Below, in pieces: positions 3,036 through 54,045 of a stretch of DNA of 64,000 bases. The stretch comes from Patescibacteria group bacterium (lineage in GTDB: Bacteria > Patescibacteriota > Doudnabacteria > UBA920). A program made the position numbers and the translations under genes. How positions within the stretch are numbered: the stretch's first letter is position 1; each line of letters begins with the position of its first letter. The notes under the pieces were generated by a model. That model saw only the letters and a program-made list of their open reading frames with translations, did not search any database and had not been told where the DNA came from. Where the stretch lies: assembly GCA_013387205.1 (NCBI GenBank), contig WARV01000008.1, forward strand, positions 136 through 64,135, in the 5' to 3' direction.

Positions 3036-3039
3036 GCCT

Positions 3040-9633: not shown

Positions 9634-9636
9634 TAT

Positions 9637-13434: not shown

Positions 13435-13440
13435 AATAGA

Positions 13441-15413: not shown

Positions 15414-15570
15414 GTCATTGCGAGCGATTTAAGGTCCGCCAGCTGGCGGATTGGCTTAAATTGCGTGGCAATCTAAGCAGGGAAAGATTACTTCCCCCTT
15501 CGCTAAAGCTACGTCGGACAAGTCGGATGCCCCAAAGGAGCCTCTTTGAGGCACTCCTCCTCGCAATGAC
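15414..15570. repeat. family C element (GTCATTGCGAG ... CTCGCAATGAC terminal inverted repeats) carrying a CCGCCAGCTGGCGG palindrome
   Basis: gtcattgcgag at 15414, ctcgcaatgac ending 15570, internal tcggatgccccaaaggagcctctttgaggcactcc module shared with 23296-23358. Confidence 0.7.
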
Positions 15571-23070: not shown

Positions 23071-23295
23071 ATTGCCTTTCCTCTTTCTTGTTTTGCCGCT
23101 GTTAAGCGGAACGACAGAAATTTTTAGGACCTGTCGCACATCCCGTTTGAGTAGCAATATAATACCATTTATGTCTTTGTTAATCAATCCTGTGTTACAA
23201 AACAGCAAATTTGTCGTTATATTATATATAATGCGAAATAGGATCAAGTTGTCATTACGAGGAGCCCGCAGGGCGACGTGGTAATCTTTGTACCA

Positions 23296-23491
23296 TGATA
23301 AGATTGCTTCGGTCGGATGCCCCAAAGGGGCCTCTTTGAGGCACTCCCTCGCAATGACATTGCTTGTTTGCTGTCATTGCGAACCCTGATATTTTATAGC
23401 TTTTAAATATCATGGTGAAGCAATCTGTTTAAGAGATTCTTCGCTACGCTCAGAATGACGCCTGAGGAGTAGTGGATTCGCTCGCAATGAC
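23296..23491. repeat. family C elements: one 3' half-copy (23296-23358) plus one full copy (23374-23491)
   Basis: ctcgcaatgac at 23348-23358 and 23481-23491, gtcattgcga at 23374. Internal gaagcaatctgtt..aagagattcttcg hairpin as in the 51322 copy. Confidence 0.7.
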
Positions 23492-24393: not shown

Positions 24394-24470
24394 AAAAATG
24401 ACAAGATTGACATAAATAATCTGCAGTTAATATTTTGTCATTTCCGTCGTTTTTGTCATTTTTGTCAATA
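24380..24470. repeat. family D (TGACA-rich) palindromic element
   Basis: aatgacaaaaattaaaaaaatgacaagattgacataaataat ... ttttgtcatttccgtcgtttttgtcatttttgtcaat, near-identical to 36145-36233. Confidence 0.6.
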
Positions 24471-26344: not shown

Positions 26345-26490
26345 ATTAACCTAATTATTCTAATTGCTCTAATTGACCCCGTGTCAGGCACGGGGCAGGC
26401 TCTAAATAAATCACAATACCCAAATCCAAAATTAAAAATTAGGTATTAGGATTTGATTAGACTAATTAGGTCAATTAGGTTAATTAGAAA
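26345..26490. repeat. family A palindromic element (contains ccccgtgtcaggcacgggg hairpin)
   Basis: aattaacctaattattctaattgctctaattgacc ... ttaggtcaattaggttaattagaaat. 3' module abuts the start codon of the next gene exactly as at 3005-3039. Confidence 0.7.
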
Positions 26491-26500
26491 TTTGCAGTCT

Positions 26501-30667: not shown

Positions 30668-31768
30668 ATGAAGATTGGAATTGAAGCAGAAAGGGCTAAT
30701 CTTGGCCAGAAGACCGGGGTTGAGCATTATGCCAAGCAGCTCATTCTGCACCTAGCCGAAATAGACCAAAAAAACCAATATATTTTATATTTGCGAACCA
30801 AACCGGAAAGCTGGTTTTTGAATTTGCCAAAAAACTTTTCTATAAAAGTAATGCCGTTTCCGATTTTCTGGACGCAGGTCAGGCTGTCTTTGGAAATGGT
30901 TTTTAATCCGGTTGATGTTTTATTTATTCCAGCTTCCGCGCTGCCTTTGTTACACCCGAAAAACAGCGTTGTGACAATCCATGATTTAGCCTGGCTGTTT
31001 TATCCGGATACTTTTACCTGGTTTAACCGCAGCTTCTTAAAATGGTCGACAAAATTTGCAACCAGGAATGCGAGAAAAATAATTGCGGTTTCTGAGGCGA
31101 CTAAGAATGATTTGGTTAAATATTATCGCGTAGATGATAAAAAGGTTGGTGTAGTGCATCATGGGTATGAGAATAACAATTACGGATTACGGATTACGGA
31201 TTACGGATTAAAATCGCCACTACCGGAAAAATTTATTTTATTTTTATCGACCTTACAACCAAGGAAGAATTTGGAAGGGCTGATTGACGCTTTTAAGGAA
31301 TTAAAACAGGAAAATCCGGAATTGCCGCACAGGCTGGTGGTGGTCGGCAGACTCGGGTGGAAATTTGAAAGTATTTTAAAGAAGATTGATGAAAATAAGG
31401 ATTTGGTTGCTTATTTAAACCATGTATCAGACGAAGACCGTTTGGCGATTATGCGCAAAGCCGATTTATTAGTTTTGCCAAGTTTCTATGAAGGTTTCGG
31501 CATGCAGATTTTGGAAGCGTTTGACGCAAAAGTGCCGGTTGCCGCATCAAAAGTTTCCAGCATGCCGGAAGTGGCGGGGGAAGCTGCTGTTTATTTTGAT
31601 CCTCATGATACAAAAGAGATAAAAAACGCCATTAAGTGTGTTTTGTTGGACAAGTCCATGTCAGACTGCTTAAAAGACTTGGGGCAAAAGAGGCTTGAAA
31701 GTTTCAGCTGGAATAAGTGTGCAAAAGAAACCCTGGAAGTAATGACAAAATTGACGGAAATGACATAA
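30668..31768 (+). CDS. GT4-family glycosyltransferase
   Basis: Start MKIGIEAERANL. C-terminal LPSFYEGFGMQILEAFDAKVPV (GT4 E-x7-E region). In-frame ttacgga x4 heptad repeat at 31189-31216 (LRITDY). 3' end inside a family D element. Confidence 0.85.
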   Translation: MKIGIEAERANLGQKTGVEHYAKQLILHLAEIDQKNQYILYLRTKPESWFLNLPKNFSIKVMPFPIFWTQVRLSLEMVFNPVDVLFIPASALPLLHPKNSVVTIHDLAWLFYPDTFTWFNRSFLKWSTKFATRNARKIIAVSEATKNDLVKYYRVDDKKVGVVHHGYENNNYGLRITDYGLKSPLPEKFILFLSTLQPRKNLEGLIDAFKELKQENPELPHRLVVVGRLGWKFESILKKIDENKDLVAYLNHVSDEDRLAIMRKADLLVLPSFYEGFGMQILEAFDAKVPVAASKVSSMPEVAGEAAVYFDPHDTKEIKNAIKCVLLDKSMSDCLKDLGQKRLESFSWNKCAKETLEVMTKLTEMT

Positions 31769-31895
31769 ATTAACCTTCATACAGGCGTCATTCCGAGTGC
31801 AGCCGAGGAATCTCCTTTTGTAGTTTAAGAGATCCTTCGCTCGGATGCACTCGCTCAGGATGACGCCGGAGCGTCATTTTTGTCATTTATTTAAT
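31741..31895. repeat. family D element with a family C-like element nested inside
   Basis: aatgacaaaattgacggaaatgacataaatt ... [gtcattccgagtgcagccgagg...gctcaggatgacgccggagcgtca] ... tttttgtcatttatttaa. Confidence 0.55.
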
Positions 31896-31906
31896 TTTTT
31901 TAATTT

Positions 31907-33520
31907 TTGCTCATTGTATTTATGTTTTTAACTGACGAAAATAAAATATTTTCCTGGCCAAAAGCCGCCATGTCATTATTATACGTATGGCAGGCGCTTA
32001 CCATATTGCTTGTGATTTTTGGAATACTGCAGCCTTGGGCTGTCTGGATTGTCCTGATTTTAGGGCTTTTATATATCGCAATTTTCCCGGAATTCTATTC
32101 TTTGATGTTCCTGATTGTTTCTATCCCATTTTATCTGGCAATACCGAACCAGCGTTTTGACACGCTTTCAATTTGGAGAATTTGGTTTGCATTTATTTTT
32201 CTTGTTTGGTTTTTCAGGTTTACTATCAGGTTTTACCGAAAAGAGAAAAAGATTAACCTAAGAAAAATATGGTCAGAAATTTACTTTATGCCTTGGGATA
32301 AGGCATTGGGCTTGTTTTTCTTTATTGCGGTTATTTTGGTCCCGTTTTCTAAATTTGCCGTACCAAGCCTTAAGCAGCTAATGTTTATTTTGAATGCTTA
32401 TTTTATATATGTAGTTTTGGTAAATACCATAAAAACAAAAGAGCAGATAATCAGCGCGGTCAGGTTCGCAATAATTTCTTTAGGCACCATTGTGCTTGTA
32501 GGTTACATCCAGCTCATTTCGACATTTTTCACCAGCTTTGATACGTTTTGGGTTTACTGGGCCAGCTTCATTTCAAAGTTATATTACGGCCAAAACCTGG
32601 CAAGCGTTTTGTTATATTCCAACTCCTGGTTTTCTTATAATGGCGCCAGGGAATTGCGCATGTTCAGCATAATGCCGGATTCGCATTCTTTCGCGGTCAT
32701 CTCGGTATTTTTAATTTCATTCCTTTTGTCCTTAACTTATTTTTACGCGAAAAGGGACAGGTATATGCTTTGGACCGTTGTCAGGACAACCGGTCTTGCG
32801 GTAATCCTTTCCGGCACGCGCGGCGTGTGGGCCGGCATGGCCGCTCCTTTTTTGGCGACGATTTTCATGATAACAAAAAATTATTTCAGGCCTATCGCGG
32901 AAAAGATTTTTTGGTCTTTGGCTATGATCCTTTTGTTTTTTGCTATGGCCCCGGCATTTAACAAAGCATTTGATTTTATGCGCGTTAGGAGCTTTAAGGA
33001 AAACTTTTTGGACCGGGCCAAGACAATGTATGACGTCAGCGAGGATTCCAATCAGGCCAGAATAGAAATTTGGAAGCACAGTATCAGATACGCGGTCAGC
33101 CATCCTGTGGGCGTGGGTTTTGGCAATTTCTTAGTCTCAATATCAAGCGATACAAACCAAAAGACATTTTCGGAACTGAGCCAGGTTAATAACAAGCGAT
33201 ACAACCTTCCCCAAAAATACGTTACAGCGCATAATTTATATCTAAACGTTTTAGTCGAATTGGGGGTTTTTGGCTTAGCGGCATTCTTGTGGTTCTGGTG
33301 GAAATATTTTAAAACAGTTTGGGATTTTATGGTGAGATTCCGCGACCAGGATAATTTTTATATGTTTTTCGTAATAGTTTCCGCGCTGACTTTTTTGTGG
33401 CTTTTGGCGTATGGCCTGTTTGACGTAACACTATTTAATGACAAAGTCTTAATGTATAGTTTCATCAGTTTGGGGCTTTCTGGGATTATCATAACTAGGT
33501 ACCGCGATTTGAAAAAATGA
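31907..33520 (+). CDS. O-antigen ligase/polymerase-like (Wzy_C family) membrane protein
   Basis: About 12 TM helices with periplasmic-loop region TGLAVILSGTRGVWAGMAAPFLATIF typical of O-antigen ligase family. Confidence 0.6.
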   Translation: MLIVFMFLTDENKIFSWPKAAMSLLYVWQALTILLVIFGILQPWAVWIVLILGLLYIAIFPEFYSLMFLIVSIPFYLAIPNQRFDTLSIWRIWFAFIFLVWFFRFTIRFYRKEKKINLRKIWSEIYFMPWDKALGLFFFIAVILVPFSKFAVPSLKQLMFILNAYFIYVVLVNTIKTKEQIISAVRFAIISLGTIVLVGYIQLISTFFTSFDTFWVYWASFISKLYYGQNLASVLLYSNSWFSYNGARELRMFSIMPDSHSFAVISVFLISFLLSLTYFYAKRDRYMLWTVVRTTGLAVILSGTRGVWAGMAAPFLATIFMITKNYFRPIAEKIFWSLAMILLFFAMAPAFNKAFDFMRVRSFKENFLDRAKTMYDVSEDSNQARIEIWKHSIRYAVSHPVGVGFGNFLVSISSDTNQKTFSELSQVNNKRYNLPQKYVTAHNLYLNVLVELGVFGLAAFLWFWWKYFKTVWDFMVRFRDQDNFYMFFVIVSALTFLWLLAYGLFDVTLFNDKVLMYSFISLGLSGIIITRYRDLKK

Positions 33521-35210: not shown

Positions 35211-36143
35211 ATGGATATATCAATAATTATCCTTTCCTACAAATCCAAAGAGCATTTGAAGGTGCTTTTGCCGAGTATTAAGCAGCAAACCGGCATCTGT
35301 TGGGACGGCTCCGGTGATGGATATAGCGGCGAAGTAATTATTGTCGACAACGGTTCGAACGACGGCACGGTTGAATGGGTTGAAGATCAGATTGATAAAT
35401 TACGGATTACGGATTACGAATTGAATGTTAACGAATCCGCAATCCGCAATCCGCAATTGTGTTTAATTAAAAATACTAATTCCGGTTTTGCGGCTGGAAA
35501 TAACATCGGCATAAAAAAAGCCGCGGGCAGGCATATCTTAATTTTAAATCCTGACACGAAATTGGAACCGGATACGCTGGAAACCATGCTTGATTTTATG
35601 GAAAAGCGGCAAGATGTCGGAATTAGCGGATGCAAACTTATCAAAGCTGACGGAAAATTGGATTTAGCATGCAGAAGAAGATTTCCAAACCCTTGGAACA
35701 GTTTTTCGCGGTTGTTTTTGAAAAATAATACCAATTACAATTACAGCGATATAGATGAAAACCAGGAAATGGAAGTTGATAGCGTGGTCGGCGCTTTTAT
35801 GCTTGTCAGAAAATCGGTGATTGATAAAATCGGGCTTTTGGATGAAACATTTTTTATGTATGGCGAAGATTTGGATTGGTGCTGGCGCTGCAAGGAAGCT
35901 GGTTTTAAGGTTTGGTATCATCCGAAAACTTTTATTTACCATTACAAAGGCGAATCATCAAAAAAAATTCCTTTTAAGGCTTTAAAGTGGTTTCATGACG
36001 CCATGTGGACTTTTTACAGTAAGCATTACGCAAAAAAGTATCCGTTTTTCTTTAATTGGATAGTTTGGGCGGGGATTTATTTAAGGATGTTGGTTTTAAT
36101 AGTAATCAATTTACCCAGGAAAGAGGCAAGGGTAAGCAAATAG
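35211..36143 (+). CDS. GT2-family glycosyltransferase
   Basis: MDISIIILSYKSKEHL ... VIIVDNGSNDGT ... YGEDLDWCWR. In-frame palindromic heptad insert 35400-35460 (LRITDY...AIRNPQL). Confidence 0.85.
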   Translation: MDISIIILSYKSKEHLKVLLPSIKQQTGICWDGSGDGYSGEVIIVDNGSNDGTVEWVEDQIDKLRITDYELNVNESAIRNPQLCLIKNTNSGFAAGNNIGIKKAAGRHILILNPDTKLEPDTLETMLDFMEKRQDVGISGCKLIKADGKLDLACRRRFPNPWNSFSRLFLKNNTNYNYSDIDENQEMEVDSVVGAFMLVRKSVIDKIGLLDETFFMYGEDLDWCWRCKEAGFKVWYHPKTFIYHYKGESSKKIPFKALKWFHDAMWTFYSKHYAKKYPFFFNWIVWAGIYLRMLVLIVINLPRKEARVSK

Positions 36144-36144
36144 A

Positions 36145-36233
36145 AATGACAAAAATTAAAAAAATGACAGAATTGACATAAATAATTGGCCCAATAATTT
36201 TGTCATTTACGTCGTTTTTGTCATTTTTGTCAA
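36145..36233. repeat. family D (TGACA-rich) palindromic element
   Basis: aaatgacaaaaattaaaaaaatgacagaattgacataaataat ... tttgtcatttacgtcgtttttgtcatttttgtcaat. Confidence 0.6.
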
Positions 36234-36289
36234 TGTGATTATTTTTGTGGTATTATTAAATTAATTATTATTATCTTCTTACTTTAATT

Positions 36290-37549
36290 ATGGACATTGA
36301 ACAGAATCCAGGCGGTACAAATTCAGCACCGGAAAGAAAGACTTTAAGAAATCCTTTAAAATCAACCACTATAATAGTGTTGGTTGCGATTTTAGTAGGG
36401 TATGTTTTCGGCTTTCAGACCGGTAAAAAAGGCTACACTTTTGTCCCAAAGGAATTTAAGATAGTCAACCAGGCTGACCAGCCAAAAACAGTAGATTACC
36501 AGCTATTGTGGGACGCGATTAACGTGATTAACGAAAAATATATAGACAAGCCGGTCGACCAGCAGAAAATTTTGTATGGCGCAGTTAAGGGTGCAGTGGC
36601 TGCAACAGGAGACCCGTACACTGACTTTTTTGAACCGAAAGATTTAGAAAGCTTTAAGACAGATTTAAAAGGTTCGTTTGACGGAATTGGTGCGGAGATC
36701 GGCAAGAAGGATGGTAATATTGTTGTTATTGCTCCGATTGATGACAGTCCGGCAAAGAAAGCAGGAATCCAGCCGAAAGATATTATCCTTCAGGTTGATG
36801 GAAAGTCTACGGCCGATTGGTCAGTGGAAGAAGCGGTTAGCCACATCCGCGGGCAAAAAGGCACGGATGTTACTTTGACTATTTTCCGTGAAGGAAAAAA
36901 CAAGCCGTTTGACGTCAAGGTTACCAGGGCGCAAATTCAAGTTAAAAGCGTAAAGTGGCAGGTTAAAGATGTGAACGGCAAGAAAATTGCAGTTATTACA
37001 ATTTCCCGTTTTGGTGATGATACCAAGCCTTTGTTCGACCAGGCGGTAAATGACGTACTGACAAAGAATATTAACGGATTGGTTGTGGATTTGCGCAATA
37101 ACCCGGGCGGGTATCTGCAGACTGCGGTTGATTTGGCTTCCAATTGGGTTCCCTTGGGCAAGGTTGTTGTTACAGAAGCCAGGAGCCAGGACGGGTCCCA
37201 ACAGTATACGGCAAACGGACATACAAGGCTTTCGGGAATTAAAACCGTGGTGCTGATTAACGGTGGCAGCGCTTCGGCGTCGGAAATTTTGTCCGGTGCT
37301 TTGCAGGATTATAAAATTGCTGAGTTAATCGGGGAAAAAAGCTTCGGTAAGGGAAGCGTACAGGAATTGGTGGACTTGCGCGGGGGCAGTGCGGTTAAAG
37401 TAACTGTCGCAAAATGGATTACGCCAAACGGAAAGAACTTGAATAAGGACGGTTTGAATCCGGATGTCGAAGTTAAACTGTCTGATGATGATATTACTAA
37501 CAATCGCGACCCGCAAATGGACAAGGCATTGCAGGAAGTTACAAAATAA
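36290..37549 (+). CDS. ctpA: C-terminal processing peptidase (S41, tail-specific protease)
   Basis: PDZ GIQPKDIILQVDGKST, catalytic region LVVDLRNNPGGYL ... INGGSASASEILSGAL ... KSFGKGSVQ. Confidence 0.85.
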   Translation: MDIEQNPGGTNSAPERKTLRNPLKSTTIIVLVAILVGYVFGFQTGKKGYTFVPKEFKIVNQADQPKTVDYQLLWDAINVINEKYIDKPVDQQKILYGAVKGAVAATGDPYTDFFEPKDLESFKTDLKGSFDGIGAEIGKKDGNIVVIAPIDDSPAKKAGIQPKDIILQVDGKSTADWSVEEAVSHIRGQKGTDVTLTIFREGKNKPFDVKVTRAQIQVKSVKWQVKDVNGKKIAVITISRFGDDTKPLFDQAVNDVLTKNINGLVVDLRNNPGGYLQTAVDLASNWVPLGKVVVTEARSQDGSQQYTANGHTRLSGIKTVVLINGGSASASEILSGALQDYKIAELIGEKSFGKGSVQELVDLRGGSAVKVTVAKWITPNGKNLNKDGLNPDVEVKLSDDDITNNRDPQMDKALQEVTK

Positions 37550-37648
37550 ATTAACCTAATTATTCTAAACAAATCCCAATTCCTAATTTCTAAAATTAGA
37601 CATTATTTAGAATAATTAGAGCAATTAGAATAATTAGGAATAATTATA
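37550..37648. repeat. family A palindromic element
   Basis: aattaacctaattattctaaac ... ttagaataattagagcaattagaataattagg. Confidence 0.65.
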
Positions 37649-37650
37649 CC

Positions 37651-39441
37651 ATGTCTAAAATAACAGCACAGCAACTGCGAACTAAATATCTCGAATTCTT
37701 CAAATCCAAAGGCCATACCGTTATCCCTTCGGCGTCTTTGGTGCCGGAAAACGATTCTTCAGTTTTGTTTACCACAGCGGGAATGCATCCTTTGGTTCCT
37801 TATCTTTTAGGGCAGCAGCATCCGGGCGGAAAAAGGGTGACAAACGTGCAAAAGTGCATCAGGACCGGCGATATTGACGAAGTTGGGGATAATACCCATC
37901 TGACCTTTTTTGAGATGCTTGGAAACTGGAGCTTTGGGGATTATTTCAAGAAAGAGGCGATTTCCTGGAGCTTTGAATTTTTGACAAGCAAAGATGGTTT
38001 GAATTTGCCGCTGGAGCGTTTGGCGTTTTCAGTTTTTGCCGGAGACCAGGATGCTCCGCGCGATGAAGAAGCCGCCGGCATTTGGAAGTCGTTAGGCGTT
38101 AAGGAAGAAAGAATCGCGTATTTGCCGAAAGAAGATAACTGGTGGATAGCGGGAAACACCGGGCCATGCGGACCTGACACGGAAATGTTTTATTGGATAG
38201 ACGATGGCACGCCGGCTCCGGCAAATTTCCAGGAGACTAAAGAAGACAAGCGTTGGGTGGAAATTTGGAATGACGTGTTTATGCAGTTTGAAAAACAGCC
38301 GGATGGCAAGCTTGTTCCCTTAAAACAGCAAAACGTGGATACTGGGATGGGTTTGGACAGGACCTTGGCAGTTTTAAACGGACAAAAATCTGTTTATGAC
38401 ACAGAAATCTTTAAGCCATTGTTCGATGTTTTGTCTTTGGGCCAGGAAGTAATGTCTAACGATGAAATCCGCAAAGCCAGGATAATCTTAGACCACATTC
38501 GCGCATCAGTTTTTATTGTTGCCGACGGTGTCGAGCCGTCTAATAAAGACAGGGGTTATGTTTTAAGAAGGCTCCTGCGGCGCAGTATGGTTTACGGCAA
38601 GCTTTTGAATCTGCAAAACCATTGGCTCAAGGCGCTTATTGGCCAAGTTATGGCGATTTATGGCGATGCGTATCCGGGAATTGTCAGAGACAGCAATAGG
38701 ATTTTTGAAGTAATAGAAGCAGAGCAGAAAAAATTCGGCTTAACGCTCGAAAAAGGACTTAAACAATTAGAATCAAGAATCAAGAATCAAGAATCAGGCG
38801 GACTGACAGGCAAGGAAGCTTTTGATTTGTATCAATCATTCGGTTTTCCATGGGAGCTGACCAAGGAGATGGCGGAAGCGATTGGGCAAAAAATCAATAA
38901 GGAAGAATTTGAAACTGAATTCAAAAAGCACCAGGAATTATCCCGCACCGCCAGTGCCGGTCAGTTTAAAGGCGGGCTTGGCGGCAATAGCGAAAAAATC
39001 GTGAAATATCATACTGCTACGCACTTGATGAACGCAGCGTTAAGGCAAGTGCTTGGAGAGCATGTCTGGCAAAAGGGGAGCAACATCACCGAAGAGCGCA
39101 CCAGGTTCGATTTTACACATCCTCAAAAAATGACCGAAGAGGAAAAATTGAGCGTTGAAGCTTTGGTTAACGGATGGATTAGCCAAGATTTGCAGGTTAA
39201 AAAAGACATTATGCCTATTGAAGAGGCTAGAAAATTAAACGCCATTGGGGTGTTCGGCGAGAAATATTCTGACACAGTATCCGTTTATACAATTGCCGAC
39301 ACCAATACGGGCGAAGTGGTATCCCGCGAACTTTGCGGCGGCCCGCACGTCGAACATACCGGGGTGATAGGAAAATTCAAGATACAAAAAGAAGAAGCGT
39401 CCAGTGCAGGTATCCGCCGCATAAAAGCAACTATAGAATAG
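37651..39441 (+). CDS. alaS: alanyl-tRNA synthetase, short form (catalytic + editing domains, no C-Ala domain)
   Basis: N-terminus FFKSKGHTVIPSASLVPENDSSVLFTTAGMHP ... FFEMLGNWSFGDYFK. Editing HxxxH region HTATHLMNAALRQVLGEHVWQKGS and CGGPHV. In-frame aatcaag x3 heptad at 38769-38796. Confidence 0.9.
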   Translation: MSKITAQQLRTKYLEFFKSKGHTVIPSASLVPENDSSVLFTTAGMHPLVPYLLGQQHPGGKRVTNVQKCIRTGDIDEVGDNTHLTFFEMLGNWSFGDYFKKEAISWSFEFLTSKDGLNLPLERLAFSVFAGDQDAPRDEEAAGIWKSLGVKEERIAYLPKEDNWWIAGNTGPCGPDTEMFYWIDDGTPAPANFQETKEDKRWVEIWNDVFMQFEKQPDGKLVPLKQQNVDTGMGLDRTLAVLNGQKSVYDTEIFKPLFDVLSLGQEVMSNDEIRKARIILDHIRASVFIVADGVEPSNKDRGYVLRRLLRRSMVYGKLLNLQNHWLKALIGQVMAIYGDAYPGIVRDSNRIFEVIEAEQKKFGLTLEKGLKQLESRIKNQESGGLTGKEAFDLYQSFGFPWELTKEMAEAIGQKINKEEFETEFKKHQELSRTASAGQFKGGLGGNSEKIVKYHTATHLMNAALRQVLGEHVWQKGSNITEERTRFDFTHPQKMTEEEKLSVEALVNGWISQDLQVKKDIMPIEEARKLNAIGVFGEKYSDTVSVYTIADTNTGEVVSRELCGGPHVEHTGVIGKFKIQKEEASSAGIRRIKATIE

Positions 39442-39489
39442 TTTATAGTTTGTAGTAAGTAGTTTATAGAAAATAAAACAAAATAATCA

Positions 39490-39513
39490 GCCCCAAAGGG
39501 GCCCCTTTGGGGC
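39490..39513. terminator. 24-bp perfect GC-rich palindrome after alaS
   Basis: gccccaaaggggcccctttggggc. Confidence 0.5.
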
Positions 39514-39556
39514 ATTAAAATCCGCGCAGCAGATCCGCGTTAAGATCTGTGGTCAT

Positions 39557-40726: not shown

Positions 40727-40748
40727 CTTTAAAGCTTAATCGTCTTGA

Positions 40749-40840
40749 TTGACAAAATTGTCATAATTTAAAAAATTGACACAAATATTACTGCAGTTTA
40801 TTTATGTCAATTTTGTCATTTTTTTATTTTTGTCATTTCA
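40749..40840. repeat. family D (TGACA-rich) palindromic element
   Basis: gacaaaattgtcataattt ... ttatgtcaattttgtcatttttttatttttgtcattt. Confidence 0.55.
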
Positions 40841-42787: not shown

Positions 42788-43042
42788 TTGATATACAGTA
42801 ATCAAGACTTAGGAAAGTCCGGTAAAAATAAGAAAGATGTCATCGAACTTGAGGGCAAAGTCATTGAAAATTTGCCTAATGCTATTTTTCGTGTCCAGCT
42901 GGATTCAGGTCAGGTTGTTGTGGGCCATCTATCCGGAAAAATGAGAGTGAATATGATAAAGGTTCTGCCTGGCGACAGGGTTATTATTGAAATGACTCCT
43001 TATGATTTATCAAAAGGCAGAATTACAAGAAGAATGAGATAA
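42788..43042 (+). CDS. infA: translation initiation factor IF-1
   Basis: [38 protein letters not shown]...[24 protein letters not shown]. Start is TTG at 42788 or further in. Confidence 0.85.
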
Positions 43043-43045
43043 GTA

Positions 43046-43133
43046 ATATAATCCGAATTATCCGAATATAATCCAAATGACCCGAAATAGGACTCATTTG
43101 GGCATTCGGATGGTAATTCGGGGAATTAGGATT
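43046..43133. repeat. family E long imperfect inverted-repeat element
   Basis: taatccgaattatccgaatataatccaaatgacccgaa ... catttgggcattcggatggtaattcggggaattaggatta, ends 6 nt before the rpmJ ATG. Confidence 0.65.
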
Positions 43134-43139
43134 ATATCT

Positions 43140-43374: not shown

Positions 43375-43764
43375 ATGGCACGTATCGCAGGGATAAACAT
43401 TCCTAACGAAAAAAGAATAGAAGCTGCTTTGCCGGTTATATACGGGATAGGCTTTACTCTGTCCAAAAAGATTTTGGCGGCGACCAATGTGGATCCGAAT
43501 AAGAGAACCAAGGACTTGTCGGAAGAAGAACTGAACAGGATCCGCGAATACATTGAAAAAAACTTCAAAGTAGAAGGCGAGTTAAGGCAGCAGATTTTAT
43601 TGAACATCAAGAGGCTTAAAGAAATCAGCGCTTACCGCGGGATAAGGCATATTAGAGGTTTGCCGGTCCGCGGCCAAAGGACAAAAACCAACTCCAGAAC
43701 CAGAAGGGGTAATGTCCGTAAAACTGCCGGAAGCGGCCGTAAAGCAGCTTCAGAAAAAACATAA
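43375..43764 (+). CDS. rpsM: 30S ribosomal protein S13
   Basis: [26 protein letters not shown] ... [20 protein letters not shown]. Confidence 0.95.
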
Positions 43765-43765
43765 C

Positions 43766-43871
43766 ATAATCCGAATTATCCGAATAATCCGCCAGCTGGC
43801 GGACCAAATGACCCGAAAAAGGGAGAAGCCATTTGGGGCATTCGGATGGTAATTCGGGGTATTAGGATTAA
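43766..43871. repeat. family E element carrying an inserted CCGCCAGCTGGCGG palindrome (43789-43802)
   Basis: cataatccgaattatccgaataatc[cgccagctggcgg]accaaatgacccgaaaaagg ... catttggggcattcggatggtaattcggggtattaggatta. Confidence 0.65.
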
Positions 43872-43880
43872 TATTACATT

Positions 43881-45085: not shown

Positions 45086-46018
45086 ATGGAAGCTATTCCA
45101 CTTCCTAATCACTCAAAAGTACAAGATTTAGGCAATAATAAATACAGCTTAATTCTGGAGCCGTTATATCCCGGCTACGGCGTTACTATTGGTAATGCCA
45201 TGAGGCGCGTGTTGCTTTCTTCCATGCCCGGAGCTGCGGTTACGGCTGTAAAAATTAAATTTGTCGACCACGAATTTTCCACTATTCCGCATGTTAAAGA
45301 AGACGTAATCCAGATTATTTTGAACCTCAAGCAGTTGAGGATCAAAAGCTTTAGCGCTGAACCGGTTAGATTATCCTTAAAGGTTAAGGGTGAAAAAACC
45401 GTTACCGCGGCCGATATAAAAGAAATCGACCAGGTCCAAATTATCAGCAAGGATTTGCACATTGCGACTTTGGACAACAAGAATGCGGAACTGGATATGG
45501 AATTGGTTGTAGAGCAGGGCAGGGGATACTTGCCGGTTGAAGCCAGGGAAAACCAGAAGCTGGAAGTCGGCATGATTGCCTTGGACGCGATATTTACTCC
45601 GTTGAAATCTGTGCACTTTGATGTTTCTAATGTACGTGTCGGCCAATTGACCAACTTTGACAAGCTGGAAATCTTCATGGAAACTGACGGTACAATGGAT
45701 GGACAGGAAGCGGTTGATATTGCAGCCCATATCTTGGTTGACCACTTTACCATGATGTTCTCCAATGATTTTGGTAAAATCGAAACTCCGGTTGAAACTG
45801 AAATTGCCGTTGCTGAAGAAATGGTTCCGGTAATCGCTTCTGCCGAGAATGAAATTGAAAATTCTACTCTTTCGACTAGGGCGAAAAACGCCTTGTCCAA
45901 GAACGGGGTTACTTCAATCGCGGCTTTGCAGAAACTCAGCAACGAAGAAATCGGCAGCCTTTCCGGTTTAGGCGATAAAACCATCAAGGAAATTTACGAT
46001 TTCCTTGGCAGACAATAA
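45086..46018 (+). CDS. rpoA: DNA-directed RNA polymerase subunit alpha
   Basis: EPLYPGYGVTIGNAMRRVLLSSMPGAAVTAVKI ... C-terminal CTD. ggagg SD 9 nt upstream of ATG at 45086. Confidence 0.9.
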   Translation: MEAIPLPNHSKVQDLGNNKYSLILEPLYPGYGVTIGNAMRRVLLSSMPGAAVTAVKIKFVDHEFSTIPHVKEDVIQIILNLKQLRIKSFSAEPVRLSLKVKGEKTVTAADIKEIDQVQIISKDLHIATLDNKNAELDMELVVEQGRGYLPVEARENQKLEVGMIALDAIFTPLKSVHFDVSNVRVGQLTNFDKLEIFMETDGTMDGQEAVDIAAHILVDHFTMMFSNDFGKIETPVETEIAVAEEMVPVIASAENEIENSTLSTRAKNALSKNGVTSIAALQKLSNEEIGSLSGLGDKTIKEIYDFLGRQ

Positions 46019-46086
46019 AACAATGACAAAATTGACATAATTGACAAAAATGACAAAAATATTGCAGCAAAATTATGTTCAATTTT

Positions 46087-46181: not shown

Positions 46182-46526
46182 ATGCGCCATCAAAAGAAGA
46201 AAAAAATAGGCAAAGGAACTGACCATAGGAGAAAATTACTCAGAACACTTGCATCCTCGGCAATTCTTTACGAGAAGATTGAGACTTCTTATGCTAATGC
46301 CAGGGCCGTAAAGCCGTATCTGGAAAAAGCCATAACCCAAGCTAAAGATAATTCCTTGTATAGCAGGAGATTGTTGCTTTCCAGGCTGAGCACCATGGCC
46401 ACGAAAAAAGCTTTGGAAGTTTTAGGGCCTAAGTATAAGGAAAGAAAAGGCGGTTATACCAGGATGATTAAGCTGAATAATCCGCATGAAGGAAAGTCAA
46501 AAGTAATTTTGGAATTAGTAGAGTAA
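46182..46526 (+). CDS. rplQ: 50S ribosomal protein L17
   Basis: MRHQKKKKIGKGTDHRRKLLRTLASS ... GGYTRMIKL. Confidence 0.9.
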   Translation: MRHQKKKKIGKGTDHRRKLLRTLASSAILYEKIETSYANARAVKPYLEKAITQAKDNSLYSRRLLLSRLSTMATKKALEVLGPKYKERKGGYTRMIKLNNPHEGKSKVILELVE

Positions 46527-46528
46527 CA

Positions 46529-46619
46529 TAATCCGAATTATCCGAATATTATCCAAATGACCCGAATAGGGAAGAACTCATTTGGGGCATTCGGATGCTG
46601 ATTCGGGGGATTAGGATTA
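46529..46619. repeat. family E long imperfect inverted-repeat element
   Basis: cataatccgaattatccgaatattatccaaatgacccgaatagg ... catttggggcattcggatgctgattcgggggattaggatta, ends 6 nt before the rplM ATG. Confidence 0.65.
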
Positions 46620-46625
46620 ATAATT

Positions 46626-48786: not shown

Positions 48787-49120
48787 AGTGCTTTAAGCAA
48801 ACTCATAAGCCGAATTCTGTTTCTAAATAATCATCTGTCTAGCCCTTAAATTGCTCTAAGGGTCAAGCAGCCTACCTAACTTGGCTTTGCACTCAAGTAA
48901 GAGTTTAGCCGTTTCACCTTGGCATTGCTACCAAGACGATCCAATTGCTTGGATCTCCTAGCCTTTCGGCATCGGACGTTTCTGTTCGCATCTCGCACCT
49001 TGCGGTGGACGGGAATTACCCGCTACCCTTTTTGATAACTCTATAGAGGCTATCAAACAAGTGTTCGGACTTTCCTACCCAATTTTTACATTGGATTGAT
49101 TATTCGATTTGCTTAAAGCT
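48787..49120 (-). ncRNA. rnpB: RNase P RNA (bacterial type)
   Basis: Minus-strand sequence contains CR-I GGUAGGAAAGUCCGAACAC (rc of about 49061-49079), GGUGCGAGAUGCGAACAG region, and CR-IV/V AACAGAAUUCGGCUUAUGAG (rc of about 48800-48820). P1 helix gcuuuaagcaaa (49119-49108) pairs with uuugcuuaaagc near the 3' end. Terminator follows at 48757-48786. Promoter TTGACA-17-TAGAAT on minus at 49154-49126. Confidence 0.75.
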
Positions 49121-49125
49121 TCAAT

Positions 49126-49154
49126 ATTCTATCAGATATTATCAAAATTGTCAA
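49126..49154 (-). promoter_or_regulatory. sigma70-type promoter of rnpB (TTGACA-17-TAGAAT on minus strand)
   Basis: rc of 49149-49154 is TTGACA, rc of 49126-49131 is TAGAAT, 17-nt spacer. Predicted TSS coincides with the P1 5' strand. Confidence 0.5.
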
Positions 49155-49198
49155 GTATAAGCTGGAAAAAAGCAGTTAAAATTGATATAATATTTTAT

Positions 49199-50635
49199 AT
49201 GAAGAAAGCGGAGCTTATTTTTAACTTGGTGACCATACCAATGGACGGCTTAATGATAATAGCCGCCGGTGTGGTATCGTTTTTTATTAGGCAAAGGTCA
49301 ATAAATTTTATCGGACCCATTATCTACCAGCTGAATTTGGGCGATTTTGTCAGTACCGTTTACAAGCTTGCCCCTATTTTGATTCTTATTTTCGCTGTGC
49401 TAGGCTTGTATAACTTAAGAGGGACAAGAAAGTTTTCCGACGAGTTTTCCAAAATTGTCATCGGAATTTCCCTGGGGCTTTTGATTGTCATGCTCTTATT
49501 CTTCTTTAACCAGACAATTTTCCCTTCCAGGTTCATAATTTTAGCCACCTGGGGGTTGGGAATTTTGTTCGTGGTAGCCGGCCGCCTTGCATTAAAATTA
49601 GTCCAGCAGCTTTTGTTCTACCAAAACATCGGCCTGCATAAATTGGTTGTTATAAATAGCGAAAGCGGAAACATTTCGGTAATTGAACAGGTTTATAAAA
49701 ATAAAAAATACGGATACGAAATAACCAGCGAGTTGGAATATTCGGAAAGTATTTTTGAAAAGCTGCAAAATTTATACGACAATAAAAAAATCGACGAAAT
49801 TTTACAGGCTAATCCAGGGCTGGGAGACGAAATAAACTTGAGACTAGTCCAATTTGCCCGGAATAAAGGCTTGCAGTTCAGTTTCGTGCCGAACCTTTTT
49901 GAAGTCCAGAGAAATTCGATAGAAACTTACAACTTAAAAGGCGTTCCGGTAATCAGCCTGAAAAATACTCCGCTGGACGGCTGGGGAAAAGTCGCCAAAA
50001 GGATTTTGGATATTACAGCATCAACAATTTGCCTGGTTATAACCAGTCCGCTGTTTTTAATTATCTATATTGCCATTAAAATCGACAGTGAAGGCAAGGT
50101 GATTTATTCCGCTTTGCGCGGCGGCTGCGGCAGGGATTTTCCGTTTTACAAATTTAGGAGCATGTACAGCCACTTAAGCGTAGGCGCAATGTATGGCGGC
50201 GATGGAGCGGAAAAAGTCAGGCAGGAGCTTTGGAAAGTCAACAGCCGCGGCGGGGCAAGCGGACCGTTCTTGAAAATCAAAGATGACCCAAGAGTTACCA
50301 AGGTTGGAAAGTTTTTGCGTAAAACCAAGCTCGACGAAATTCCGCAATTTTGGAACGTGCTTAAAGGCGATATGAGCATGGTTGGCCCAAGAGCCCACGT
50401 TTTGGATGAAGTTGATCGGTACAGAAACCGCTACCGCAGGATGTTTTCAATAAAGCCCGGAATTTTTGGTATGTCGCAAATAGCGCAAAGTTCCTGGCCG
50501 GATTTGCCGTTTGAGGAAGAAATCAAGCTCAACACGTTTTATATTGAAAACTGGAGCCTATGGCTGGATTTGAAAATTTTGGCAAAAAGCTTTTGGCTTA
50601 TCTTTTTCGGCAGCAAAGCCAGGGAAGATTATTAA
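49199..50635 (+). CDS. polyprenyl-phosphate sugar phosphotransferase (bacterial sugar transferase, WbaP/EpsB-like)
   Basis: C-terminal LDEIPQFWNVLKGDMSMVGPRA conserved motif, N-terminal TM bundle. Start ATG 49199 preceded by tgatataat box (near-leaderless). Track start 49109 would overlap rnpB. Confidence 0.85.
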   Translation: MKKAELIFNLVTIPMDGLMIIAAGVVSFFIRQRSINFIGPIIYQLNLGDFVSTVYKLAPILILIFAVLGLYNLRGTRKFSDEFSKIVIGISLGLLIVMLLFFFNQTIFPSRFIILATWGLGILFVVAGRLALKLVQQLLFYQNIGLHKLVVINSESGNISVIEQVYKNKKYGYEITSELEYSESIFEKLQNLYDNKKIDEILQANPGLGDEINLRLVQFARNKGLQFSFVPNLFEVQRNSIETYNLKGVPVISLKNTPLDGWGKVAKRILDITASTICLVITSPLFLIIYIAIKIDSEGKVIYSALRGGCGRDFPFYKFRSMYSHLSVGAMYGGDGAEKVRQELWKVNSRGGASGPFLKIKDDPRVTKVGKFLRKTKLDEIPQFWNVLKGDMSMVGPRAHVLDEVDRYRNRYRRMFSIKPGIFGMSQIAQSSWPDLPFEEEIKLNTFYIENWSLWLDLKILAKSFWLIFFGSKAREDY

Positions 50636-50642
50636 TATATAA

Positions 50643-50733
50643 TCCGAATTACCCGAAATATTTATCCAAATGCCCCAAATAAAATAAGATGCATTCGGAT
50701 AATTCGGATGTTAATTCGGGGCATTAGGATTAC
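50643..50733. repeat. family E long imperfect inverted-repeat element
   Basis: ataatccgaattacccgaaatatttatccaaatgccccaaat ... gcattcggataattcggatgttaattcggggcattaggatta, ends 4 nt before the GT4 ATG. Confidence 0.65.
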
Positions 50734-50737
50734 ATTA

Positions 50738-51949
50738 ATGAGGGTTGCTTTAGCACATGATTCGTTTACTCAATTAGGCGGAGCGGAAAGGGTAATTGCA
50801 GAATTACACGAGATGTTTCCGGAAGCCCCGATTTTTACTTTGGTTTTAGACCGGAAGTTAAAGGGTGATTTTGCCGGCTGGGATATTAGGACATCATGGC
50901 TTCAGGTGTTATACAATTTCATTCCCAAGTTGCAGTACCTTTTGCCATTTATTCCTCTTGCTGTTTCGTCCTTGGATTTGTCCGGGTACGATGTGGTAAT
51001 TTCTTCCAGCTCAAGCTGGATTAAGAATATCAAGACGCCGAAAAATTGCATCCATATCTGCTATTGCCACACGCCTACCAGGTTTTTATGGGTAGATAAA
51101 GATTATGTGTCGCAAGAAGTGCCGAAATTTTTAAAGCCTTTGGTAAATTGGCTGCTTAAATTAATGAAAAAGTGGGATTTTAAAAAGGCGCAAAAAATCA
51201 ATTTTTTTATTGCCAACTCCAAAGAAGTCCAAAATAGGATTTCCCAATATTACCATCGTGACAGCGTAATAATTTACCCGCCGGTTGATACAAATTTTTG
51301 GCATCCAATCGCCCCGTCATCGTCATTGCGAGTGCAGCCGAAGCAATCTGTTAGATCAAACCAAGAGATTGCTTCGTCCACCTTCGCTGAAGCTACGGCG
51401 GACCTGCGATCGGATGCACTTCTCGCAATGACATCAAAAAAGGATTATTTCCTTATTGCCGGACGCCTGCAAGCGCACAAAAAGAATAATTTAATTGTTG
51501 AGATATTTAACGAGATCGGCTTGCCTTTGCACGTAGCGGGGACAGGACGCCAGGAAGATTATTTGCAATCCATTGCCAAGCCAAATATCAAATTTTTAGG
51601 CAGGATTAGCGACGAACAACTTAGGGATGAATACAGCGGAGCAAAAGGTTTAATTTTCCCGCAGCTCGAAGATTTAGGGCTAATTCCCATAGAAGCGGCC
51701 AGCTGCGGCACGGCAACTATCGCTCTTGCCAAAGGAGGTTCTTTGGAAACTGTAGTTCCCGGAGTAACAGGGGAATTATTTGAAACTTACGATAAGGAAA
51801 AAATCAAACAGATAATTCTTTCATGGAACCCGGATAAATATTCCCAAGAAAATTTAACGGTTCACGCTAAAAAGTTCGGCAAAAATTCATTTAAGGAAAA
51901 ATTATTGGAATTCATAAATAAAAATAATCTCAATGAAAGAAAGGTTTGA
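50738..51949 (+). CDS. GT4-family glycosyltransferase with in-frame 37-codon repeat-element insertion
   Basis: MRVALAHDSFTQLGGAERV (GT4 N-domain) ... FLIAGRLQAHKKNNLIVEIF ... FPQLEDLGLIPIEAASCGTATIA (GT4 C-domain). Inserted segment SLRVQPKQSVRSNQEIASSTFAEATADLRSDALLAMT corresponds to the family C element. Confidence 0.85.
   Translation: MRVALAHDSFTQLGGAERVIAELHEMFPEAPIFTLVLDRKLKGDFAGWDIRTSWLQVLYNFIPKLQYLLPFIPLAVSSLDLSGYDVVISSSSSWIKNIKTPKNCIHICYCHTPTRFLWVDKDYVSQEVPKFLKPLVNWLLKLMKKWDFKKAQKINFFIANSKEVQNRISQYYHRDSVIIYPPVDTNFWHPIAPSSSLRVQPKQSVRSNQEIASSTFAEATADLRSDALLAMTSKKDYFLIAGRLQAHKKNNLIVEIFNEIGLPLHVAGTGRQEDYLQSIAKPNIKFLGRISDEQLRDEYSGAKGLIFPQLEDLGLIPIEAASCGTATIALAKGGSLETVVPGVTGELFETYDKEKIKQIILSWNPDKYSQENLTVHAKKFGKNSFKEKLLEFINKNNLNERKV
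51322..51432. repeat. family C element (GTCATTGCGAG...CTCGCAATGAC), 111 bp, inserted in-frame within GT4 coding sequence
   Basis: gtcattgcgag 51322-51332, ctcgcaatgac 51422-51432, internal gaagcaatctgtt..aagagattgcttc hairpin. 111 = 3 x 37, reading frame preserved. Confidence 0.7.
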
Positions 51950-52826
51950 ATCTTCAGAAAATATCTATAACAAAATAAGCCCTACCGCTTGGTCTGTGGC
52001 TTATGGCAGGACTTTTACCGATATCCCATTTTCCAATGAAATTTATTCAGAACTAAAAAATGATAACCCGGCTTTTTTGCGATTGGAAAAAGACGGTATG
52101 TTAAGCGCCAGGCCGGTAGCCGTCCAATTCGAAGCTAGATACAAGTTAATTAATAAACTTACAAAGTTAAACGGTCAGAGACAAATTTTAGAGTTAGCAT
52201 CCGGTTTATCGCCGCGTGGAATGGAGCTTTCCAGTCAGGATTGTGATGTTTTTGTCGAAACGGATTTGCCGGAAATGATTGACCTTAAAAATGACATAGT
52301 AAGAAAAGTTTTACATCACAAAAATATTGCATTAGACGGGCGTTTATTCATCGAACATGGCAATGCCATAGAACCGGGAGGTTTGGCACAAGCTGCTAGC
52401 CATTTCAAACCGAATGAGCACGTTTGTGTGATTACCGAAGGGTTGTTGCGTTATTTGGACTTTGATGAGAAAACCAAAGTGGCAAAAAATGTAATATCTG
52501 TACTCAATAAATATGGCGGTTATTGGCTTACATCAGACACACAAACTTTGGCCGACGTGCCCGAATCACATAAAACCGATAATGCAAAATTTTCCAAGTT
52601 AGTCGGTAGGGAAATTTCAAAAAATTATTTTGAGACCCCGAAACACGCCGAAGATTTTTTTGAGAATTTGGGCTTTACGGTAAAGCCTTATTCGTTCAGC
52701 GAAATCGAAGATTGTTTGGTTTCTCCCATGCGTCTGGGCCTGGATAAAAAAACAGTTAACGAAGAGCTGTCTAAGCGCAGGGTATTCTTAATGAGATTAA
52801 AAGAATCGAATGAAAATAACCATTGA
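51933..52826 (+). CDS. class I SAM-dependent methyltransferase (LCM/TcmP-like)
   Basis: ILELASGLSPRG motif-I-like glycine-rich segment, size and pattern like leucine-carboxyl/TcmP O-methyltransferases. Overlaps upstream GT4 by 17 nt. Confidence 0.5.
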   Translation: MKERFESSENIYNKISPTAWSVAYGRTFTDIPFSNEIYSELKNDNPAFLRLEKDGMLSARPVAVQFEARYKLINKLTKLNGQRQILELASGLSPRGMELSSQDCDVFVETDLPEMIDLKNDIVRKVLHHKNIALDGRLFIEHGNAIEPGGLAQAASHFKPNEHVCVITEGLLRYLDFDEKTKVAKNVISVLNKYGGYWLTSDTQTLADVPESHKTDNAKFSKLVGREISKNYFETPKHAEDFFENLGFTVKPYSFSEIEDCLVSPMRLGLDKKTVNEELSKRRVFLMRLKESNENNH

Positions 52827-53931
52827 TTTACGAAGCTTGTCGAGCGGGAATGTTTCGGGCGTGGAAAACTACACTTTGAACCTTTTGGAACATTTGCTGA
52901 CAATTGATAAGAAAAATACATATACGCTGTATTATAATTCCTGGAAAAAAGCCAGCTTGCCGGATTTGCATTTTATTAATTCGAAGATTGTAAAGACCAG
53001 TTTTCCGAATAAAGTTTTAAACTTGATGCTGATGGCAAAGCTGGTTGATATGGAAAAATTATCCGGACCGACTGACTGCCTGTTCATGCCGAATTTGAAC
53101 CAGTTTAACATCAATCCTAATGTGAAACTAGTTTTAACTGTCCACGACTTATCGCCGATTGTAACGCCTGAATATTATGATGCAAAAAGGAACCTTTGGC
53201 ACAAGCTTTTAAGGTACAAACAGGCTTTTAATAGGGCTGACTTGATATTCGCCGTATCGGATTTCACTAAATATGATTTAATGAAGCATTTCAATTTGCC
53301 GGAAAATAAAATTCACGTTGTACATTCTGGGATTGACCATAAACATTTTAATACAGAAATACCAGATGAAAAATTAAGGGAAGTGAGGAATATTTACGGC
53401 TTGCCAGGCGATTATATTTTGTTTTTAAACACCATTGAACCAAGGAAAAATTTATCAGGAGTGATAAAAGCGTTTGAATTATTGGACCATCCTGTAAATT
53501 TAGTCATTGCCGGAAAGAAAGGTTGGAAAAACGGGGGTTTGTTTAATCAAATCAGAAAAAGCCGCAAAGCAAAGAAAATTAAATATTTGGGTTACATTAA
53601 AGAAGAAGACAAACCGGCAATTATCAAGCTTTCTCGGGGCTTAGTTTATCCTTCGTTTTACGAAGGTTTTGGTTTTCAGCCTCTTGAGGCAATGGCGTGC
53701 GGAGTGCCTACTGTAGTATCCCAGGTTTCAGCTCTGCCGGAAGTAGTAAAAGATAGTTCTTTGTTGATTAATCCTTATGACCCAAACAGTATGGCTTTGG
53801 CTTTAGAGCAAATTTTATCTGATGAGGAATTGTCGGGTCAACTAGTCCAAAAAGGACTGAATTTGGTTAAGGAATATAATTGGGATAAATTTGCAGGGCA
53901 GATTTTGGAAGGGTTGAATAGTCTCTACTAA
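52810..53931 (+). CDS. GT4-family glycosyltransferase
   Basis: YPSFYEGFGFQPLEAMACGVPTVVSQVSALPEVV. Confidence 0.85.
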   Translation: MKITIDLRSLSSGNVSGVENYTLNLLEHLLTIDKKNTYTLYYNSWKKASLPDLHFINSKIVKTSFPNKVLNLMLMAKLVDMEKLSGPTDCLFMPNLNQFNINPNVKLVLTVHDLSPIVTPEYYDAKRNLWHKLLRYKQAFNRADLIFAVSDFTKYDLMKHFNLPENKIHVVHSGIDHKHFNTEIPDEKLREVRNIYGLPGDYILFLNTIEPRKNLSGVIKAFELLDHPVNLVIAGKKGWKNGGLFNQIRKSRKAKKIKYLGYIKEEDKPAIIKLSRGLVYPSFYEGFGFQPLEAMACGVPTVVSQVSALPEVVKDSSLLINPYDPNSMALALEQILSDEELSGQLVQKGLNLVKEYNWDKFAGQILEGLNSLY

Positions 53932-54045
53932 ATACTAATATGTACTAAATATACTAAAGTAATATACCAGCAGTGATATCAATTAAGTATATTTGGATGA
54001 TATTTAGTACCTTTAGTATTAATTAGTATTTAGTAGAAAGATTAG
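53931..54045. repeat. family F palindromic element, copy 2 (inverted relative to 9521-9633)
   Basis: taaatactaatatgtactaaatatactaaagtaatataccagcagtgatatcaattaag ... ctttagtattaattagtatttagtag. Confidence 0.6.

Follow-up and report, generated by a model that had tools for sequence, protein, structure and literature searches.

The 64,000-nucleotide stretch of contig WARV01000008.1 analysed here (the window) carries a gene for a GT4 glycosyltransferase in which a 111-bp palindromic element lies in frame at the linker between the two Rossmann domains of the enzyme. The explanation that we favour, at a probability of roughly 0.8, is that a small non-coding palindromic repeat landed in frame in the hinge of this enzyme and is read through as a tolerated loop. 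An earlier note on this DNA had already proposed an in-frame insertion at this linker, and both parts of the proposal are borne out, the first by the exact 11-nt ends, the open frame and the strong fold of the element (z = -5.4), the second by its position in the gap between the two Pfam halves of the protein. The assignment of the host to a Candidate Phyla Radiation (CPR)-like genome, which the note had also made, holds on a basis confined to the best matches of the GT4 protein, found in metagenome-assembled genomes of Patescibacteria and Doudnabacteria at 54-65% identity, and to conserved synteny.

The element occupies positions 51322-51432 and is bounded by the exact inverted ends GTCATTGCGAG and CTCGCAATGAC; its in-frame translation within the open reading frame (ORF) 50738-51949 is SLRVQPKQSVRSNQEIASSTFAEATADLRSDALLAMT. 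The 11-mer end, with up to one mismatch allowed, occurs nine times in the window against 0.75 expected, a number reached by none of 100 shuffles. The GT4 copy folds at -48 kcal/mol, and all five window copies fold far better than shuffled sequences (z between -4.3 and -6.5 over both strands). Only two of the six frames of the element are free of stop codons, and the GT4 gene uses one of these; with the frame kept and no stop codon, the ORF reads through the element. No terminator-like signal was detected within the GT4 gene, and Rfam, searched at a permissive threshold, gave no match for the element. Neither the plasmids of PLSDB nor the viral contigs of IMG/VR (searched for exact matches to the repeat unit) yielded a match. 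In a collection of 5.8 billion proteins the window insert peptide shares no words with any entry, and a consensus query, VIARSASDEAIS...IASDALAMT, returned one insignificant match.

The addition had been counted as 37 codons, which is correct for the 111-bp element itself; relative to orthologues with an empty linker, on the other hand, the extra segment comes to about 40 codons and includes a CGTCAT-CGTCAT tandem duplication at the left junction (Table 1). The evidence for this segment includes the uniform empty sites and a comparison of the filled L083 with the empty L208 (L-numbers denote related contigs or loci, P-numbers orthologue proteins). The second CGTCAT copy corresponds to the tag and the beginning of the inverted end, an analogous TCTGTA-TCTGTC is found at the same left junction in L083, and the terminal ACA of the segment may be a host Thr codon.

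In each window element a spacer separates two inverted units, which enclose smaller nested palindromes. All ten arms of the five window copies share one plan, namely GTCATTGCGAG, 0-50 nt of nested hairpin modules and GAAGCAATCT, and the copies are nevertheless not uniform, having common ends and a common inner GAAGCAATCT/AGATTGCTTC hairpin but different nested modules. The left unit of the GT4 copy is identical at 27 of 28 bases to the left unit of L085 and has 21 nt in common with window positions 31786-31806; the right unit, its module set aside, agrees at 33 of 34 bases with the right units of L081 and L083. The nested module is 96% identical over 27 nt to the insert of L006, a related module is present in the window copy at 15414-15570, and L083 has a similar one in the opposite arm.

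Table 1. Coordinates of the host gene, of the parts of its insert and of the other copies of the element in the window.
Feature	Position	Strand	Remarks
GT4 (GT-B fold) glycosyltransferase hosting the element, 403 aa	50738..51949	+	ORF, Pfam, AlphaFold2, Foldseek, synteny
Inserted segment relative to empty orthologues (inferred)	51314..51433	+	40 codons, P193-T232; boundaries uncertain by a few bases
Tandem 6-nt duplication CGTCAT-CGTCAT at left junction	51315..51326	+	Read from sequence
Left repeat unit: tag C, then GTCATTGCGAG-TGCAGCCGA-AGCAATCT	51321..51349	+	
Central spacer, the loop of the whole-element hairpin	51350..51365	+	Fold
Right repeat unit, inverted: AGATTGCTTCG...TCGGATGCACTTCTCGCAATGAC plus A	51366..51433	+	Split by nested module
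Nested 33-nt hairpin module TCCACCTTCGCTGAAGCTACGGCGGACCTGCGA	51377..51409	+	Encodes TFAEATADLR
Intergenic copy, 157 bp	15414..15570	.	Exact ends
Intergenic copy, 108 bp	23251..23358	.	One mismatch in left end (GTCATTACGAG)
Intergenic copy, 119 bp	23373..23491	.	Adjoins the 23251-23358 copy; right arm with nested CGTCATTCTGAG terminus
Intergenic variant copy	31785..31867	.	Ends CGTCATTCCGAG / CTCAGGATGACG

The ends were further characterized in metagenome contigs scanned with the pattern GTCATTGCGAG N0-3 TGCAKCCGA N0-3 AGCAATCT, which retrieved at least 120 contigs with the repeat unit (median GC 44%); all metagenome copy statistics in this text are among the matches listed. The base preceding GTCAT is T at 122 (82%) and C at 22 (15%) of 148 ends, and in the GT4 copy the left end carries CGTC and the right end TGTC (GACA). 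Inverted pairs with the tags facing outward are formed by all five window copies and by 74 metagenome copies, and direct repeats of 2-6 nt flank at most two of the 74, at or below chance, so that no target-site duplication is apparent. The stem of the unit begins ATTGC...GCAAT, of which only 5 bp pair directly, and encloses 13-19 nt or nested hairpins. The tail is CT in the window subfamily, where CT was fixed by the search pattern, and CCA in the VIPE-type relative of L006.

The host protein displays the two Rossmann-like halves and the conserved C-terminal acidic motif residues of GT4 enzymes. By Pfam, Glyco_transf_4 covers residues 14-186 and Glycos_transf_1 residues 233-379, the insert filling the gap between them, and the start at 50738 is supported by the N-termini of the orthologues (MKIALAHD...). 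In an alignment of 61 sequences, with the window GT4 in the first row, there are 62 invariant columns, which the window protein keeps by construction, including Glu311, Asp312 and Glu319. The structure prediction that the earlier note had suggested gave an AlphaFold2 model with a mean predicted local distance difference test (pLDDT) score of 89.7 and a predicted TM-score of 0.85, in which both Rossmann halves are confident (above 90) and the insert is unstructured: values below 50 occur only at residues 194-220 and 226-228, within the insert. Foldseek matched the model to the GT-B-fold GT4 structures MshA, HepE, BshA and PimA. The gene belongs to a cluster conserved in related genomes (rpsD, rpoA, rplQ, rplM, rpsI, ..., SIMPL, Bac_transf, GT4, (methyltransferase), GT4, GT4, murG, patatin, murC, murB).

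Alignment to orthologues, also suggested at the outset, revealed that the site is empty in most of them. The window protein was aligned with its 120 best orthologues (121 sequences in all), and an insertion at the linker was scored when at least eight extra residues were present. The linker has a fixed length, FW.PTxxK.DYF, in 88 of the 120 orthologues, while 33 of the 121 sequences (32 orthologues and the window protein) carry an insertion at the same 4-codon (12-nt) position; about a quarter of the orthologues thus have the linker filled by such elements. The junctions of the inserts, read in the DNA of species-representative genomes, differ by 1-4 codons between genomes, and the inserted peptides fall into several families. 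VIAS...LLAMT has GTCATTGCGAG ends in phase 0, SLRV... arises from those ends read in phase +1, the phase of the window copy, and RHSEG...QDD has CGTCATTCCGAGG-type ends in the third phase; further families are VIPE...GRDD and the unrelated SPPFKGG / PLLAKEG. Single units also occur (L081). A fold-based scan of 689 kb around GT4 in 40 related genomes, adopted after a strict inverted-end search had missed diverged elements, found about nine hairpin elements, of which at least three lie in the 12-nt linker, and missed two more there; the density of elements at the linker is far above that of neighbouring intergenic DNA. One 111-bp candidate in the upstream gene of L014 (9051-9161) was rejected as a chance regular-expression match, being ordinary coding sequence that aligns without gaps to its window homologue.

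Internal insertions of at least eight residues number 53 in the 121 sequences, 49 of them at two sites, the linker (33) and a position just after TGE[LF]F (16). This second in-frame hotspot, absent in the window, where its equivalent would be at about 51770-51785, is occupied solely by a different family, whose ends are GTAG...CTAC and whose peptides are VVAPFMG...DKSGNY and AATGRH..GGLRY; the two hotspots are thus used by different element families. The orthologues concerned are P0004, P0019, P0039, P0049, P0050, P0053, P0055, P0060, P0063, P0065, P0073, P0074, P0091, P0092, P0110 and P0120, with examples at the DNA level in L002 (4213-4272), L014 (10925-10966), L015 (11024-11089) and L017 (11036-11083). 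The distant GT4 orthologue of L037 (41% identity) contains two in-frame elements, at 3817-3921 and 4195-4320, one at the usual linker and one of GTCATTGCGAGG type at a third site (residue ~99).

The element family is not restricted to this enzyme. Copies elsewhere, which the earlier note had asked to be counted, are intergenic in the window and are also found within other genes in other contigs. When a copy is taken as intragenic if it lies inside a stop-free frame with at least 60 codons on either side, 34 of 108 evaluable copies qualify; random positions in the same contigs, submitted to the same test, give 44%. Ten intragenic hosts were scanned against Pfam and all ten are housekeeping enzymes: acetyl-CoA synthetase, MnmA, PurQ, an M16 peptidase, the ATP synthase gamma subunit, MurD, a PfkB kinase, an M24 peptidase, GatB and UvrC. 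In most of them the Pfam matches run across the insert or flank it on both sides, and some elements in other enzymes sit inside domains. Two further hosts, identified by eye only, are presumably LeuRS and RecJ. The 20 complete copies inside ORFs preserve the frame by definition. No frame-breaking insertion was found, since for none of the 47 complete copies outside ORFs does removal of the copy reconstitute a gene. From the sequences, this frame pattern is a signature of purifying selection on a translated insert.

A comparable situation is seen in zinc alcohol-dehydrogenase-like orthologues. Those of L109 and L189 both carry a VIAR...LAMT element at residues 75-103, and they differ at a second common position, with another VIAR...LAMT element in L189 and a PLLEKEG / EGGEGV-type repeat in L109; here too, as in GT4, one site is occupied by different families.

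The sequence of events that would account for these observations begins with an element composed of two inverted units similar to repetitive extragenic palindromes (REPs), each made of (C/T)GTC and ATTGCGAG...GAAGCAATCT with the tags outward and with smaller hairpin modules nested inside. A copy inserted into the hinge, four codons long, that joins the Rossmann halves of a conserved cell-envelope GT4 would be translated as a loop of about 40 residues, unstructured and at the surface, leaving the enzyme able to work, and would thereby have escaped purifying selection. The family may have spread by a cut-or-copy reaction on single-stranded hairpin DNA, of the type of the insertion sequences (IS) IS200/IS605 and the REP-associated tyrosine transposases (RAYTs), or by another enzyme acting in trans. 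Resident hairpins may in turn attract further insertions, which would explain both the nesting and the serial replacement at one site.

Several points weigh against this explanation. We infer, from sequence, both the translation of the insert-bearing GT4 and its activity. Tolerance alone is not enough to account for the excess of elements at the linker over nearby intergenic DNA. The unit departs from the neat hairpin of CGTC-tagged REPs, in which a stem of 8-9 bp carries a loop of 4-5 nt. As to the mobilizing enzyme, a tblastn search of the whole window with three RAYT sequences found none, no transposase family was among the Pfam matches of the ten window ORFs scanned, and the repeats beside the RAYT-like genes of L180, L098, L192 and L045 are of other kinds, not TGTC/CGTC units.

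A stronger possibility, which we consider rather unlikely, is that the GT4 hinge and equivalent sites in other housekeeping enzymes are actively targeted or that the insert is retained for some benefit, such as the pacing of translation at the domain boundary by an RNA hairpin. In the case of targeting, a structure-specific single-stranded DNA mechanism could recognize palindromes already in place and add new elements within them or next to them, and the loops of orthologous CPR proteins would then change quickly as translated repeats are gained, lost and replaced one after another. Retention of the insert as useful, either as a longer flexible hinge that alters GT-B domain opening or as an mRNA hairpin that slows ribosomes or serves as a processing site, could draw on the excess of elements at the linker, on the 32 filled orthologues and on the stability of the hairpin. 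Most orthologues, however, do well with an empty linker, the inserted peptides are unrelated between families and predicted to be disordered, the same elements occur in many other enzymes and even inside domains, and neither a terminator-like signal nor an Rfam match was found, and a useful role is judged improbable.

A single ancient insertion in the GT4 ancestor, inherited vertically and followed by many precise losses, would make the hotspot an illusion of shared ancestry. The type-A inserts do share their right junction and phase (...GCA ATG ACA, read as LAMT, then one or two codons and Lys), the inserts of L006/L015 and those of L004/L017, at the same site, are 86-90% identical over 42-49 nt, and HUH-type transposases (IS200/IS605) can excise precisely. 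The age of the inserts nevertheless speaks otherwise. The window GT4 gene is 64-65% identical in DNA to those of L081, L083 and L085, with third codon positions at 37-39%, that is saturated, whereas the element arms are identical to those of the same genomes at 27 of 28 and 33 of 34 bases (96-97%). P0016 and P0012 are 95% identical in protein and their genes 92% identical in DNA, yet they contain different element types and different linker codons, and the filled P0008 and the empty P0028 are 89% identical. Moreover, left junctions and reading phases vary, unrelated families occupy the site, and the insert-bearing sequences are scattered over a neighbour-joining tree. Because the arms are nearly identical where the hosts are saturated and close orthologues carry different elements, the sequences indicate that the linker inserts reflect recent, repeated gain, loss and replacement and not one inherited insert. 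A single ancient, neutrally evolving insert cannot produce the observed pattern, while repeated gain, loss and replacement can, and one ancestral event is accordingly judged improbable.

It is very unlikely that the gene is disabled or that the element is removed from the RNA prior to translation. An RNA-processing enzyme might in principle act on a strong hairpin whose ends are defined, and the rRNA genes of CPR bacteria carry intervening sequences. On the other hand, the frame is open even though four of the six frames of the element contain stops, the residues invariant across orthologues are retained, and the gene cluster is conserved beside murG, murC and murB. The sampled intragenic copies all keep the frame, which would not be required if they were spliced, and the lack of any frame-breaking copy speaks against excision from the RNA. 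An assembly artefact, a false join within the gene of the sort into which repeats can mislead short-read assemblers, is more improbable still, given that both flanks continue the same gene in the same frame and that analogous in-frame inserts occur at the same position in dozens of independent assemblies from different projects.

The tolerated in-frame insertion remains the preferred explanation for the GT4 element. The earlier note regarded such an insertion as unusual in a CPR-like genome; it is not a one-off, with the linker filled in about a quarter of the orthologues and the family commonly in frame in housekeeping genes of similar genomes. Literature searches by topic and by sequence string, whose coverage was incomplete and which do not prove absence, found no description of such elements in CPR bacteria.

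The other four copies of the element in the window are all intergenic (Table 1). The note had listed intergenic copies with a half copy at 23296-23358; the copies were recovered, and the half copy proved to be the right part of the complete 108-bp copy, which overlaps only an unlikely TTG-start extension of the ORF 22468-23325 on the reverse strand. The variant copy can also be delimited as 31786-31866, with the variant ends GTCATTCCGAG / CTCAGGATGAC. A GC-island scan for more intragenic copies in the window was abandoned, being too noisy at 42% GC. The module CCCCAAAGGrGCCTCTTTGAGGCAC is found inside elements (15522-15557 and 23312-23347) and alone at 39483-39518, just after the gene 37651-39441, and a GTCCGCCAGCTGGCGGAC-like sequence of the 15414-15570 copy recurs alone at 43786-43805. 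Since the same modules occur both inside large elements and alone, the small hairpin modules would appear to be independent units.

The intergenic regions of the window are also filled with direct repeats of short period (~9 bp), which come in several 'dialects' (AATGACAAA, TAATTAGG, ATCCGAAT/ATTCGGGG and ACTAAATA), often arranged as inverted sets flanking a gene; the ATCCGAAT set lies immediately upstream of the GT4 gene. These regions are 2817-3046, 9520-9645, 13439-13579, 24373-24470, 26330-26507, 31741-31780, 31873-31914, 36139-36252, 37545-37657, 40745-40838, 43013-43137, 43762-43873, 45998-46064, 46493-46622, 50628-50735 and 53909-54037.

Close to the GT4 gene, a 297-aa gene (51933-52826) lies between the first two GT4 genes and overlaps each neighbour by 17 nt; its sole Pfam match in the window is LCM (leucine carboxyl methyltransferase). 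A methyltransferase gene (Methyltransf_11 and related families) occupies the same position in L206 and L207, and there is no gene there in L081, L083, L085 and L208. Further upstream, the RNase P RNA (Rfam RF00010, 108 bits) at 48790-49115 on the reverse strand runs up to or into the TTG start listed for the Bac_transf gene (49109-50635, forward strand). Alignment with L014 suggests that the true start of Bac_transf is the downstream MKKAELIF.

Palindromic repeats lying in frame within genes are a classic curiosity of Rickettsia, and they are now seen in CPR/Patescibacteria-like genomes, apparently at scale: about a third of the sampled copies lie in genes, including those of core enzymes such as GatB, MurD, the ATP synthase gamma subunit and UvrC. 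In annotation, such inserts add to the apparent length of proteins, give rise to spurious 'hypothetical' peptides and disrupt domain calls, and they also constitute a natural loop-insertion experiment that marks permissive sites in proteins. From the perspective of mobile elements, they represent a CGTC/TGTC-tagged family without a known transposase that is conserved nearly base for base across deeply diverged hosts. Its hotspots at orthologous sites turn over between genomes that are 92% identical in DNA, and the GT4 linker offers a concrete system for studying target choice.

Among known repeats, MITEs (miniature transposable elements with inverted repeats), for example the QMITEs of Coxiella (PMC5896051; reviewed in PMC10969869), are likewise small and non-autonomous, have terminal inverted repeats and are sometimes translated in host proteins; IS-derived MITEs, however, leave target-site duplications, none of which are seen for the window family. 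REPINs consist of two inverted REP units mobilized by RAYT tyrosine (HUH) transposases (Bertels & Rainey, 2011, PMC3116915). The window element resembles them in its two inverted units forming one long hairpin and in the lack of target duplication, and RAYT-like genes are present on some element-bearing contigs, but classical REPINs have GTAG heads and are almost entirely extragenic, whereas the heads of the window element are TGTC/CGTC. The GTAG-type repeats of the second GT4 hotspot fit the REPIN model better than do the linker elements. A RAYT-like gene in L192 (~1700-2400; HUH motif VVMPNHVHVIF, a weak match with E = 0.002) has GTAG-type repeats (GTGTAGTGTGCCGATTTATCGGC) on both sides; as these repeats resemble the second-hotspot inserts, the locus is a possible candidate REPtron in a CPR-like contig.

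The closest resemblance is to the CGTC-tagged REPs, in which the tag is often TGTC, the stems start A-T and span 8-9 bp with a 4-5 nt loop and a short CCA-like tail, head-to-head dimers predominate, no dedicated transposase has been found, and intragenic copies encode 20-40 residues (Di Nocera, De Gregorio & Rocco, 2013, PMC3733652). The window element shares with them the terminal CGTC/TGTC, the stem starting AT (ATTGC...), the head-to-head dimer with outward tags and the intragenic copies, and no dedicated transposase was found adjoining its units either. It differs in its longer unit (28-34 nt and more), with an internal loop or nested hairpins and a mosaic make-up, and in its CPR hosts, which lie outside the survey of PMC3733652. 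The analogy with Rickettsia palindromic elements (RPEs) drawn in the earlier note is well founded in that RPE-4 and RPE-6 belong to the same CGTC-tagged superfamily (PMC3733652), the tag being the only sequence feature compared. According to the accounts of Ogata et al. (2000) given in PMC3733652 and PMC10969869, RPEs are short palindromic repeats found both in genes and between them; like the window element, they occur between genes and in frame in ORFs, where they would add a tolerated peptide. The host is here a CPR/Patescibacteria-like bacterium and not an alphaproteobacterium, and the window element, unlike RPEs, is a mosaic of nested modules whose orthologous site has been hit repeatedly. 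On sequence grounds, the elements are best filed as REP/RPE-like palindromic repeats, presumably translated, in a CPR-like lineage, and what goes beyond the known picture is a hotspot at an orthologous site with fast turnover by several element families.

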